From Octopus vulgaris (Eukaryota), in assembly GCA_951406725.2 (NCBI GenBank), contig OX597835.1, positions 36,952,001 to 37,016,000 of the forward strand: a stretch of 64,000 nucleotides of DNA, read 5' to 3'. The notes under the pieces were generated by a model that saw only the letters and a list, made by a program, of their open reading frames with translations, was not told the DNA's origin and ran no database searches. Positions 493-59,754 of the stretch are shown here, piece by piece; the stretch's first letter is position 1; each line of letters opens with the position of its first letter. The translations under genes were made by a program, and so were the position numbers.

Positions 493-749
493 TTATTTTA
501 TATTTTATATTATTGGAAAACCTATATAAATTGGCTGAAGAGTACTTGGTATCTTAAATCTGCTGTAATATTTACAGCTTTTAATAAAATGTTGTAGTAT
601 GAAACAATTGTACCAAATTACTGGAATCATTCTTGTTGCTTATTTTTGATTATAATCACCCCGCAATTTTTTATGGGTAACACCATACAAAATTCTGGTG
701 CATCTAAATTAAGTACCATATTCATTTGAATCTAAATTGTTGCTGACCT
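493..749 (+). mobile_element. Short (TA)n-flanked element carrying a hammerhead fold (Penelope-like/retrozyme-like, family H1)
   Basis: Bounded by (TA)n on both sides. About 590-750 is homologous to 59580-59755. Contains the hammerhead at 531-616. Confidence 0.75.
531..616 (+). ncRNA. Type I hammerhead ribozyme, canonical core, enlarged stem II
   Basis: TTGG(531-534)-CTGAAGA(535-541)-GTACT...AGTAT(596-600)-GAAA(601-604)-CAATTG(palindromic stem III)-TA-CCAA(613-616). Predicted cleavage after GUA at 612. Confidence 0.78.
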
Positions 750-840
750 TATATATATATATATATATATATATATATATATATATATATATATATATAT
801 ATATATATATATGCATATATATATATATATATGTGTGTGT

Positions 841-1082
841 GTGTGTGTGTGTGTGTGTCTGTGTTTGTCCCCACCACTACTTGACAACTGTGGTTGGTGT
901 GTTTACATCCCCCATAACTTAGCAGTTTGGCATAAGAGAATGATAGAATGAGTGCCAGGTTTTAAACACGCACACACACACAAAACAAAAATAAGTACTT
1001 GGGTTGATTCGATCGACTAAAAATTCTTTAAGGTGGTGCCCCAGCATGGCCATAATCTAATGACTGAAACAAGTAAAAGATG
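841..1082 (+). mobile_element. tRNA-derived SINE family A, 3' half
   Basis: Matches the post-microsatellite half of family A (...cttgacaac...gtgtttacatcccc...ccagcatggcc...tgactgaaacaagtaaaaga). Confidence 0.85.
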
Positions 1083-1190
1083 GAAAAACAGAAAAAAAGG
1101 GACAAAACTTTGCTTACATCCACAGACCACCATCAGCACCACCACCATCCACCCACCAGCACCACCACCAGCACCACCAGCACCACCAGT

Positions 1191-1592
1191 GGAGGCGCAA
1201 TGGCCCAGTGGTTAGGGCAGTAGATTCGCGGTCGGAGGATCACGGTTTCGATTCCAAGACCGGGCGTTGTGTGTGTTTATTGAGCAAAAACACCTAAAGC
1301 TCCACGAGGCTCTGGCAGGTGGTGGTGGCGACCCCTGTTGTACTCTTTCGCTCCAACTTTCTCTCACTCTTTCTTCCTGTTTCTTGTCCCTGACTTCCTA
1401 CACAATCCGCTGAGCCTGGATGCACATTCATCCATCCGTCAATGCTCTTGGTGTCGGGAGATGACATGCTTTCTCTTCAGCGGGTCTTACGAATAGCAAA
1501 GGACCACGTTTCGGACTTCTCCCACTACAGACAATCCTGAGGCGCAATCTTGCGAGCTCTGGGACAAAGACCACTTCGCTCAACAAACAAAC
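1191..1592 (+). mobile_element. tRNA-derived SINE family D, tail type 1 (octopus OR-type by recollection)
   Basis: Head GGCGCAATGGCCCAGTGGTTAGGGC (A box) ... GGTTTCGATTCC (B box). First ~185 nt shared with 51785-51970. Ends in (CAAA)n. Confidence 0.85.
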
Positions 1593-2337
1593 TTCTCTCT
1601 CCCACCAACACCACTAACAACATCACCACCATCCCCACCTGCACCACCATCACCATCACCACTAACAACACCATCTTACATCATCACCAATACCTCTACA
1701 ACCATCATAATTTTTCCCTTATCCAACACCACACACACACACACACACACACACACATATACTATAACTGATGGAAATGGCAGAGGTGAAGGAAAGATGT
1801 ACGCAGTTGAACAACAGAGATCTATTTCTTGATTTGCAGGCTTTTTGTCGGTTCAATACCTTCTAATGGGAACATTTATTATTAGCTATCCTTTTGTCAA
1901 TTTTCTATCAATAAAACTGTGTGAATATTTTATCCGGTTCTCATAAAAAAACTCGTAATGATTATTAATTTATAGTAATGGTACATAGTAAGAATGGTTC
2001 AGTGTTCTGATTGGCTGAAGGAAATGAAGGTGGGAGTGGCTACAGGGTGACTTTTGTGAATGACAAAGGAAGATAATAAACACGAGGTTTATGTCCACGG
2101 GTTTTAACTTCTGCACCTTCCAGCATTGGAGGAGAAGAAGGTGTGAAACAATCATTTGTATTTTATTATTCATTATTGCCATAAAAACCATTTTGCTTAG
2201 TAAGTATTCTGAAAAATTAGGTATACTGCATAAATGAAGCATAAAATTGACCATTAGTAATATCGGTTGTGATTTGTTGATACAGAAGCATAAAATATTC
2301 AAGAATTAATTATAGCAGAGCAAGAATGATGACCTCC

Positions 2338-2850
2338 ATCATCATCATCATTGTTCGACCGTGGTCGAGACAATGGAATTTACTATGTTACACCAGACTT
2401 CATGATCCATCATAGCATTACAGAGGTCCTGTCACTGGATGTCTGTATCCCTGGAGATTACATCAGGGTAGGAGAGTGTGCGCCCTCTGGTATCGTAAGC
2501 AGATGGCTTCCAGAGGAGAAGAGTAGAAATTACCTCGTTTTCAGCTCTACAACAATGTCCAGCAAACTGGACTCTTCTACCTTCCACAAGAGATGATACA
2601 GGTGGTAGTTTCCCATATATTTGTACTTTGGTTGGATGATGCTTTCACGAGGGATTTTGAGCTCTCATAAAGAGGCGAGTGTAAGTTCCATCCAACCGCC
2701 TCTCAAGCTTCTTTGATAACATCCAGGTTTCTGAGCCATATTGTAGAATTGGTTCGACTGTGGCTTTGAAGATTTGAAGTTTGTCGTCTCTACTTAGATT
2801 TGATGACCAGATCTTATGCATATCATTACAGGCTGACCAGGCCATACCTT
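2338..2850 (-). mobile_element. RTE-type LINE, 3' terminal fragment
   Basis: GMAWSACNDMHKIWSSNLSRDDKLQIFKATVEPILQYGSETW...RRVQFAGHCCR...WCNIVNSIVSTTVEQ*, followed by a (GAT)n tail. Confidence 0.9.
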
Positions 2851-3001
2851 GCATGACCTCCTGCTGGCTGTAATTTCACCAAAATTTGATGCATACAGCA
2901 GTATTAAGAAATCTATGGGAAAGTAGTGTAGAAGTATTGAGACGGATGCTGGTTATACATCTTCAATCATCCTATGTCAGCAGCACTGGGTTAACCATTA
3001 A

Positions 3002-57854: not shown

Positions 57855-58109
57855 ATTATTATTATTATTATTAAGGTAGTGAGCTGGCAGAATCGTTAGC
57901 ATGTTAGGCAAAATGCTTAGCGGTATTTCGTCTGCTGCTACGTTCTGAGTTCAAATTCCACTGAGGTCGACTTTGCCTTTCATCCTTTTGGGGTTGATAA
58001 ATTAAGTACCAGTGAAACACTAGAGTCAATGAAATCGACTAACCCCCTCCTCCTAAATGTCAGGCTTTGTGTCTATATTATTATTATTATTATTATTATT
58101 GTTATTATT

Positions 58110-58317
58110 CAGTAATGTCTGTTGTCACTTTTCCATGCTGAACATTTGAGCCCCAGGTAAACCTCTTTTCCAGCTGATTAACGACACACAGCTTGTGATT
58201 GATATATAGCGAGTAAGGAGGTTGTGTGTCATTAATCAGCTGGAAATGATATTTTCCTGGGTTAAAATGTAACATTTCTCCGCATGGAACAGCCACGCAA
58301 AAGTGGCAACATTACTG
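58110..58317. mobile_element. Palindromic MITE-like element (CAGT...ACTG ends)
   Basis: Nested inverted segments along its whole length; 24-bp inner stem 58167-58190 / 58223-58246. Confidence 0.7.
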
Positions 58318-58395
58318 TTTAGTATCGTTACTACTTGAATCTCTTTCAGAGATTTTAAAACCCAGCTAATTTAGATTATTATTATTATTATTATT

Positions 58396-59190
58396 GAGTG
58401 AGAGAGCAGTGCATGCCATCAAAGTGACACTGGGGTAAAATATATGAAGCCCAGTATACCCATCATGACTACCCGTTTGATAAGGGTACACTAGGCACAT
58501 GCATCACAGACATATGTGCGCGACATAGTGATCTCATATTAAGATAAACAGCACATGACCTTGCAGGTGGGGCCCAGTTAGAATTTTCTTCTGGTCGAGT
58601 AACCCATCCCGCTCAAAAGGTCCTTGAATAAGGGTTGTTTAAGGATGTTGAAAGAACCACACATGTTTCTAGAGGTGAATTATTCAAACCCCAAAGAATC
58701 CCTTTCAACACATGGTTATGATGCTCTCCCACTACTTCTGCTCGTGATCTGAGTTACACATTGCCAGCCACTAAGGGACATGCTCAACTGGTTACGGTCA
58801 AACAACTGACAAGCAAATCTGTGGTATTGAACAGAATATTTGCTGTAGCCCATCTTTTATACCAAGACAAAACAATGTACATGATAACACCTCCAATTGG
58901 TTAAGATCAGAAGCCATGAGAGCTACTGCCTGGTACTGCATCAGGGCATTTATTATTATTATTATTATTATCATTATTATTACTATTTATTTTTTTTCTT
59001 CTTTCTTCAAATTTTCTTCCATTTCTTGCTGAATGTTTTCCGTACACCTAGGGCAGAAAAGCTCATTGTATGCATTCCCAGATTACACACGCAAAATTCA
59101 CAGGTAAAATATGTATTTTAAAAAAAATTAACATATAAATAAATTCATGAATGGATGTTGTTTTCACAGCGATATTGTTTTGTTGTATAT
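58396..59190 (-). mobile_element. Two non-coding inserts bounded by (ATT)n (58396-58948 and ~58990-59190); possibly Dong/R4-mobilised
   Basis: Each is flanked on both sides by (ATT)n and has no ORF. Clade assignment rests only on the known (TAA)n target preference of Dong. Confidence 0.45.
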
Positions 59191-59229
59191 CATTATAATT
59201 ATTATTATTATTATTGTTGTAGCTTCAAA

Positions 59230-59267
59230 ATGCCAGGCAGAAAAAGGGGCCCCAAGTCTCATGCGCG
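59230..59267 (+). CDS. Coding part of a 45-nt host exon (59223-59267): MPGRKRGPKSHA(R); gene not identified
   Basis: ttgttgtAG|CTTCAAAATG CCA GGC AGA AAA AGG GGC CCC AAG TCT CAT GCG CG|GTAAGT. Consensus acceptor, AAA-ATG context, perfect donor, GC-rich island in AT-rich DNA. Confidence 0.72.
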
Positions 59268-59460
59268 GTAAGTAGTACTTGCTTATTTAAATTTTCATAA
59301 ACTCAGATGTCATTGGTGTTTGCTTTTAGGGAGAACAACAAAATGCATATCTGTACAATTTAGAGCTGAGTAACTGTGTGCTGCAGGGTTTTTTTTTTTG
59401 ATGTGCCTGTTTTTTCTGGCAAATTTCTTGTCAATGTTTGTGTGTATATATATATATATA

Positions 59461-59754
59461 TAATCAAAATAAGCAACAAGAATGACTCCGGTAGTTTGGT
59501 ACGATCGTTTAGTACTACATCATTTTATTAAATGTTGTAAGTATTACAACAGATTTAAGATGCTGAGTACTCATCAGCCACATTTAATAAAATGATGTAG
59601 TATCAAACGATCGTACCAAATTACCGGAGTCATTCTTGTTGCTTATTTTGATTATAATCAACCCACGGATTTTTATGGATAACACCATACAAAATATTCT
59701 GGTGCATCTAAATTAAGTACTATATTCATTTGAATCTAAATTTTTGCTGAACTT
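59461..59754. mobile_element. Family H1 element with inverted arm, inside (TA)n
   Basis: Arms ~59459-59535 / 59580-59656; the right part is homologous to 590-750. Confidence 0.8.
59497..59580 (-). ncRNA. Type I hammerhead (family H1), GAAA mutated to TAAA
   Basis: TGG-CTGATGA-GTACT...AGTAC-TAAA-CGATCG-TA-CCA on the minus strand. Confidence 0.7.

Follow-up and report, generated by a model that had tools for sequence, protein, structure and literature searches.

Penelope-like elements (PLEs) that carry hammerhead ribozymes (HHRs), target (TA)n and leave inverted, 5'-truncated ends are already known, including one octopus family. An HHR and a (TA)n preference are listed for this family, Hydra-1_Obim, in the supplement of Craig et al. 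2021 (PMC8557442), and the available part of that paper marks the Hydra clade by a CxC-X5-C linker and by CxxC and CxH motifs in the endonuclease. Altered cores are also on record, with U3-A8, U4C and, at the foot of stem II, a U-U pair given in the accessible portion of PMC3088659. For Poseidon, from Anolis carolinensis (Frangieh et al. 2024, PMC11167929, available sections), two internal reverse transcription start sites and cleavage of AT-rich DNA were shown, which explain tailed and tail-less ends and AT-rich targets, a G3-C8 laboratory double mutant was partly rescued for cleavage, and HHR mutants were not impaired in insertion in vitro. Mobilisation by PLEs, or an origin from them, has been proposed for retrozymes (Cervera and de la Pena 2020, PMC7229834; Li et al. 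2026, 10.64898/2026.07.22.740005; both in their available parts). The present analysis concerns a stretch of 64,000 nucleotides of Octopus vulgaris (assembly GCA_951406725.2, contig OX597835.1, positions 36,952,001–37,016,000), referred to as the window, in which an initial annotation had reported seven hammerhead motifs. Very probably, these motifs are folds that six repeat families (A–F) carry in their 3' ends, four of the families being clipped ends of coding PLEs and two being repeats without an open reading frame (ORF) that were likely copied in trans by Penelope-type enzymes. The six families are additional members of the known group.

The window motifs resemble the minimal HHRs described in pseudo-long terminal repeats of metazoan PLEs (Cervera and de la Pena 2014, PMC4209133, available part) in their short stem I, palindromic stem III region and unpaired base after A9, as well as in the predominance of single copies, in opposite-strand pairs 100–700 bp apart and in a U3-A8 variant. 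That source gives ~2,000–9,000 copies per genome and U3-A8 as core covariation, whereas ~10^5 were estimated here, with G3-C8, A3-U8 and U4C in addition. The estimated density and the family-wide G3-C8 (family F), A3-U8 (family E) and U4C (family C) are the less usual features. The axolotl HHR count of 126,247 given in the available text of PMC7229834 matches the estimate for the 2.8-Gb assembly. Natural family-wide G3-C8 or A3-U8 was not found in the literature searched, of which coverage was partial, and supplements, Repbase or Dfam may already hold these families or variants. A 2017 study by Luense and colleagues reportedly deals with dimeric PLE hammerheads and may list such core variants.

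Seven hammerhead motifs in the window

The window was composed mostly of microsatellites and interspersed repeats, in an assembly of 2.8 Gb and 227 contigs. The features that bear on the hammerhead motifs were as follows.

503–749, plus strand: family A copy, 5'-truncated 3' untranslated region (UTR) of a Hydra-clade-type PLE, between (TA)n tracts
531–616, plus strand: type I HHR of family A with a CUGAAGA core; stem-loop II is long and holds an inner hairpin, stem III is palindromic (ACAAUUGU), and cutting is predicted between 612 and 613
9060–9215, minus strand: family B copy, 3' end of a probable Neptune/Nematis-type PLE
9158–9202, minus strand: family B HHR, decayed, with U4C and a broken palindrome where the family form has CUGAAGA and AGUACU
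10085–10400, plus strand: family C copy, 3' UTR of a second Hydra-clade-type PLE, with a 13-nt flanking duplication
10133–10187, plus strand: family C HHR, family-wide U4C core (35 of 40 rows have C at position 4), ACAGCUGU palindrome
22215–22436, minus strand: copy of family D, covering part of its 465-nt head-to-tail monomer, which has no ORF
22344–22404, minus strand: family D HHR with canonical core; stem III is long and near-palindromic, with a single mismatch private to this copy
26765–26977: family E 3' tail (26765–26912, minus strand) and joined inverted arm (26910–26977, plus strand)
26928–26966, plus strand: family E HHR, A3-U8 core, ACCGGU palindrome
26982–27377, minus strand: family E long arm with the last GIY-YIG endonuclease codons, 3' UTR and a second HHR copy (26993–27031) that lost G12
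36330–36571: family D head-to-head fold-back without HHR, its arms ending at different monomer points
37086–37195, minus strand: 3' terminus in inverted orientation, with the stop codon and the C-terminus of the endonuclease, from the same lineage as the adjoining family G piece, 89% to locus L161
37196–37852, plus strand: family G piece, broken N-terminal part of ORF2 of a two-ORF Neptune/Nematis-type PLE
57556–57857: ORF-less family F fold-back, tailed arm 57556–57706 (minus strand), tail-less arm 57707–57857 (plus strand)
57724–57774, plus strand: family F HHR, G3-C8 core, extra base after A9, AAUAUU palindrome, UUU triplet
59459–59753, both strands: another insertion of family A, forming a fold-back inside (TA)n, with a tail-less minus arm and a 5'-truncated tailed plus arm
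59497–59580, minus strand: second family A HHR on the tail-less arm, G12 lost, ACGAUCGU palindrome

All seven type I three-way junctions could be read at or near the places first assigned to them; the fourth was also present, but the proposed interval of 22350–22403 left out the 3' strand of stem I, and 22344–22404 was required. The five stem III palindromes named in the initial annotation (CAATTG, CGATCG, CAGCTG, CCGG and ATAT) were found, and the "five or six unrelated families" proved to be six, with zero BLAST similarity between families and with sites 531 and 59497 belonging to one family (A). Each family was multicopy and dispersed when searched in its own genome. In these searches 40 candidates were scored per family, so no copy numbers were derived from them, and the loci collected were ranked by coverage of the HHR-containing queries.

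Other parts of the initial picture were revised. Not all sites lie within or next to (TA)n or (ATT)n: five of the seven adjoin such a repeat, 26928 adjoins (GAT)n, and 10133 stands in a 13-nt target-site-like duplication without one. Four fold-back insertions had been counted; three of the seven HHR sites do lie in fold-backs, whereas the fourth fold-back (36330–36571) is the family D piece without an HHR. The elements had been called short and non-coding, but the one at 26928 has a long arm that reaches the last codons of a GIY-YIG endonuclease. The Penelope-like ORF said to start at 37240 is not the start of an element but a piece of ORF2. What was upheld is the presence of PLE-type minimal hammerheads with self-complementary stem III, mostly inserted at (TA)n with inverted partners. 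The guild of small non-coding elements with a partner in the window was not: four of the six families run upstream into PLE coding sequence of their own, and only D and F are ORF-less.

Coding and ORF-less families

Judged by their protein motifs, families A and C derive from two different Hydra-clade PLEs, of which they are 5'-truncated 3' ends. Going upstream from the HHR, family A ran into an endonuclease after about 1.1 kb, marked by a CxC-X5-C linker, a GIY-YIG-like core, CxxC and CxH; this was so in L239, L242 and L247, the three longest upstream extensions among 15 family A loci. The Pfam GIY-YIG match had an E value of 7e-4 and 20.3 bits, below the 22.6 cut-off. In family C, a different endonuclease had the same motif set (L252, L253 and L262), with a GIY-YIG match likewise below the cut-off (E 3.5e-3), and a reverse transcriptase (RT) with YRDD was present in L297. 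The clade was assigned because the linker, CxxC and CxH marks are those given in the available part of PMC8557442; the HHR near the 3' end and the (TA)n insertion are also shared with that clade, and the YRDD of family C agrees, compared by eye, with the alignment in its supplement. The HHR listed there for Hydra-1_Obim differs from theirs; that of family A has a stem-loop II of ~55 nt and that of family C has U4C. Six short motifs, taken from the A and C endonucleases and from the A, C and E hammerheads, had no match in the available supplement of that paper. The two extended Hydra-clade-type copies were 5'-truncated or interrupted before the RWK and DKT N-terminal motifs. The 3' UTR of family A also contained an internal duplication of ~270 nt upstream of the HHR (L027, L236–L250), and both Hydra-type ORFs (L242 and L262) had long poly-Asn linkers, encoded by (AAT)n, preceding the endonuclease.

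Families E and G, and probably B, would be Neptune/Nematis-type PLEs, of either of the two clades. They share with the PLEs so described in the accessible text of PMC8557442 a C-terminal GIY-YIG endonuclease with a CX2-5CxxC linker and, in E and G, the DKG and YLDD motifs. The extended coding sequence of family E contained DKG, YLDD and a C-X4-C-X2-C linker, and five of its 20 loci matched the family G RT and endonuclease by tblastn. In family B, a broken GIY-YIG domain with a degenerate linker was reached in one of 20 loci, and a second locus ended at the GIY-YIG C-terminus. In family G, the RT (RVT_1, E 3e-7 in L146) was followed by the CX2-5CxxC linker and GIY-YIG (E 1.8e-3), and long open RT-endonuclease frames were found elsewhere in the genome. 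Two features depart from the described type, namely the upstream ORF1 of family G, a region of ~440 codons that overlaps ORF2 in the -1 frame (L142 and L146), and the A3-U8 HHR of family E. A Pfam search of six window ORFs gave nothing at E < 0.06. In A, B, C and E the HHR lies downstream of the stop codon, whereas in Poseidon, which belongs to another clade, it overlaps the ORF start (PMC11167929, available sections).

The initial annotation had asked of each family whether it extends into an RT and GIY-YIG frame or forms ORF-less tandem monomers, and both outcomes were observed: A, B, C and E extend into coding sequence, and D is a tandem ORF-less monomer. In family D, the sequence downstream of the HHR recurred upstream with a period of 465 nt, and no ORF was ever reached. 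A 465-nt head-to-tail repeat with two HHRs 464–465 nt apart was present in L087, permuted units were present in L074, L084 and L090, and the 3' ends were variable. Family D thus has the form of the metazoan non-LTR retrozymes, which are ORF-less, AT-rich and head-to-tail with one type I HHR per unit (PMC7229834 and 10.64898/2026.07.22.740005, available parts), and it would propagate via a multimeric or circular 465-nt RNA. It differs in monomer length, 465 nt against 220–350 nt in the available parts of these papers, and in that its copies are short, dispersed and often inverted.

Family F extended over ~205 nt, counted to the tail from a 5' start that hardly varied, in the nine of 30 loci with a full tail, and several solo copies were flanked by 8–12-nt duplications. 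Older, longer forms had ~600 nt of added low-complexity sequence. No ORF was found upstream, and 30 upstream regions gave no tblastn match. An exact pattern over the core, stem II and stem III had 4,986 matches in the genome, against 0 for the reversed control. A head-to-tail tandem was not found, the sequence upstream of the HHR not being the 3' tail in 30 + 30 loci, and neighbouring copies in L215 were split by (TA)n. Family F is therefore not a retrozyme by that definition.

Motif frequency, core variants and folding

A strict descriptor matched the window once, at the family A HHR (531–616), against 0 in 20 of 20 shuffles, and a relaxed descriptor, written after the sites had been seen, matched four times against a shuffle mean of 0.15. 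Three of the seven sites failed both through private changes relative to their own families, namely U4C with a broken palindrome at 9158, a broken palindrome at 22350 and the loss of G12 at 59497. An independent sample of 400 kb, taken from contigs C1–C30 as 40 stretches of 10 kb placed evenly and at round positions, contained 22 strict matches (seven from one tandem array) against 0, 0 and 0 in three shuffles, and 31 relaxed matches against 2, 1 and 2. The motif is thus above chance both in the window and in the independent sample. The genome is HHR-dense, as had been proposed; the frequency of one relic per 9 kb, however, compares with one descriptor hit per 18–25 kb (strict) or 13–17 kb (relaxed). 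Extrapolation from the 400 kb gives ~1.1–1.5 x 10^5 strict motifs genome-wide, with a Poisson range of 0.6–2.3 x 10^5.

When core positions 3 and 8 were left free, a Watson-Crick 3-8 pair was present in 26 of 29 distinct matches of the even sample, against four of 10 in five shuffles. These 26 comprised 20 C-G, five U-A and one G-C pairs and made up at least 16 sequence clusters. The sample also contained other HHR families, unrelated to these, with U3-A8 cores (L176, L180 and L190), and two with U4C (L174/L184 and L201). In addition, L166:3000–4600 and its inverted copies formed a tandem array with a period of 353–359 nt and a canonical type I HHR per unit, five copies on one strand and two on the other.

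The family forms of A, B and D fit CUGANGA...GAAA...UH at a three-way junction with an open stem I, whereas C, E and F depart from the canonical C3, U4 and G8 letters. Besides the U4C of family C, in which stem II also has an A-A mismatch at its base, A3 and U8 were found in 16 of 17 family E rows, the exception being L100 with G3-C8. In family F, G3 was present in 56 and C8 in 57 of 58 rows, with an extra base after A9. The 3-8 pairing was kept, and the three were therefore counted as core variants.

Covariation was seen in family A. In 17 rows, 36 cells were changed on both sides against 13.0 in shuffles, with none of 500 shuffles as high, and the score was 0.291 against at most 0.069 when the pattern was slid. 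Both-side changes occurred in stems I, II and III and in the inner hairpin, and the palindrome changed on both sides in five of the 17 rows. None of nine stem III segments folded as a hairpin, and the seven family-form segments paired with themselves over all or nearly all of their length, at -0.2 to -12.3 kcal/mol. Dimer cutting is predicted because stem III is too short to fold alone yet self-complementary. Families E and F, with their exchanged 3-8 letters, are predicted to cut, probably more slowly. Most genomic copies are likely dead, including at least three of the seven in the window.

Several other repeats in the window were recorded. Rfam microRNA matches there were (TA)n and fold-back artefacts below gathering scores and were discarded. 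A ~415-bp element resembling a miniature inverted-repeat transposable element, with ~30-bp terminal inverted repeats, a CTGAAGA and a few CCCTAA units, was present in seven copies ~90% alike, and two near-identical copies were found in the 400-kb sample. The window copies were located as follows.

9545–9947: ~415-bp element
10943–11330: ~415-bp element
17635–18106: ~415-bp element
18851–19263: ~415-bp element
21517–21906: ~415-bp element
24697–25096: ~415-bp element
31627–32039: ~415-bp element

The CTGAAGA matches at 9690, 11193, 17884, 19115, 21654 and 31770 lie inside this element, fail the descriptors and were rejected as type I HHRs. Tandem repeats with 169–209-nt units were present at 3379–3809, where the units are 98% identical, and at 5091–5408, 23896–24315 and 55072–55476, which derive from abundant interspersed repeats. 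Open frames at 28358–28906 (minus strand) and 27378–27605 (plus strand) had no Tc1/mariner transposase match in Pfam; by eye they resemble pieces of such transposases.

Insertion anatomy and alternative explanations

A (TA)n or (ATT)n tract was found near the 3' end in 29 of 30 copies of family A, 18 of 30 of family F and 14 of 20 each of C, D and E, and in nine of 20 of B, with backgrounds of 8–22%. An inverted 5' partner was present in 10 of 30 (A), five of 20 (B), eight of 20 (C), eight of 20 (D), two of 20 (E) and 15 of 30 (F). The fold-backs of A and F each had one tailed arm and one arm without a tail, which matches the PLE tail and inverted copy in the available part of PMC8557442 and the two RT start sites in that of PMC11167929. 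This anatomy supports target-primed reverse transcription into (TA)n with early termination. Following published work on other PLEs, an RT/GIY-YIG protein would nick AT-rich DNA, mostly (TA)n, and reverse transcription from either of two start sites close to the RNA's 3' end would give tailed and tail-less ends. Synthesis would usually halt early, so that only the HHR-bearing last 150–400 nt remain, and a second cDNA primed on the other strand would form the inverted partner. Families D and F may ride in trans on Penelope-type enzymes, and the HHRs may cut as dimers in tandem transcripts or with the help of protein. Slow cutting of E and F would be tolerable provided that insertion does not require cleavage.

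A number of observations weigh against this account. No hammerhead family was among the 150 listed of 230 Rfam matches in the window, and none was matched at gathering score in eight loci or, for a family D copy, at E up to 10. The family A rows were 15 of 49 distinct locus copies and the two window copies, chosen for diversity, and A was the one family tested; its helix 24–27/67–70 was 70.6% paired and not supported. The rows of B–F were best BLAST hits that differ mostly by decay, which inflates conservation and leaves little covariation, and family E offers one compensated 3-8 change (L100, one of 17). Family F has a weak stem III duplex (-0.2 kcal/mol) and a UUU triplet. When the window copies were folded as monomers by minimum energy, stems I and II both formed for B and F alone, and both A copies, C, D and E misfolded. 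The flank windows behind the microsatellite counts were chosen family by family once the loci had been seen, and other repeats here also commonly have (TA)n next to them. The PLE clades were called from motifs read by eye, not from a tree. The upstream loci walked yielded no RT for A or B, and no autonomous partner was identified for D or F.

Three other origins were compared with the preferred one. Chance motifs in AT-rich repeats, multiplied through repeat abundance, would be in keeping with the descriptor failure of three window copies, the post hoc relaxed descriptor and the Rfam results; they are barely credible against 22 strict matches with 0 in shuffles of an independent 400 kb and one topology in six unrelated families, and are refuted for family A by covariation. 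The initial annotation had regarded the 37240 ORF as a partner, and all sites could then be small non-autonomous retrozymes mobilised by its family, G. The absence of ORFs from D and F, the (TA)n bias and inverted partners common to all families, and the long open frames of G elsewhere favour this. However, A, B, C and E extend into coding sequences of their own, which largely refutes it for these four. No A–F sequence was found at the 3' ends of 10 extended relatives of G, where matches to B, D and F were neighbours and not 3' UTR. A different HHR, with a U3-A8 core, lay 600–1,000 nt past the endonuclease in the 3' UTRs of four of nine relatives checked (L159, L160, L164 and L165). The window copy of G is broken by a stop and a frameshift, and L161, of a closer subfamily and one of the two copies closest to it, ends ~15 nt past the stop codon. 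Mobilisation of all sites by family G is thus very improbable; the 37240 ORF is evidence of PLE enzymes in this genome but does not identify family G as the mover of these elements. The head-to-tail units of family D would also fit a DNA satellite spreading by unequal exchange or duplication, not via RNA, but its copies are dispersed over many contigs, mostly with fewer than two units, and end near (TA)n or have inverted partners at the frequencies given above, which makes this quite unlikely.

A loss of cutting activity in the variant-core motifs (C, E and F), with the fold kept by descent or as a protein-binding structure, is somewhat unlikely, though less so than any of the other alternatives. 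U4C lowers activity in vitro (PMC3088659, available part), G3-C8 restored the PLE hammerhead only in part while mutants still inserted (PMC11167929, available sections), and eight of nine Xenopus retrozyme dimers failed to cut according to the available text of 10.64898/2026.07.22.740005. The A-A mismatch of family C and the weak duplex and UUU triplet of family F point the same way. In contrast, the 3-8 pair is Watson-Crick in all four forms across families, and the subfamilies of F differ in loop 2 among the matches listed, though the search pattern fixed the core and stem II.

Beyond the preferred reading, PLE 3' ends and ORF-less passengers with hammerhead folds, a wider proposal is advanced tentatively. 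The genome may hold ~10^5 hammerheads in dozens of PLE-linked families with all four Watson-Crick 3-8 forms. Among them, G3-C8 in family F, an ORF-less ~205-nt PLE passenger of about 5,000 or more copies, and A3-U8 in family E could be active natural ribozymes missed by CUGANGA searches, so that animal HHR counts and some calls of "no HHR" in PLEs would be understated. In the literature searched, as far as its available parts go, G3-C8 appears in print only as a laboratory mutant and A3-U8 not at all. Families D and F are two ORF-less passengers with PLE-type insertion footprints and bear on what mobilises animal retrozymes. The system is test material, in which natural family-wide 3-8 swaps let one ask how much cleavage a PLE needs.

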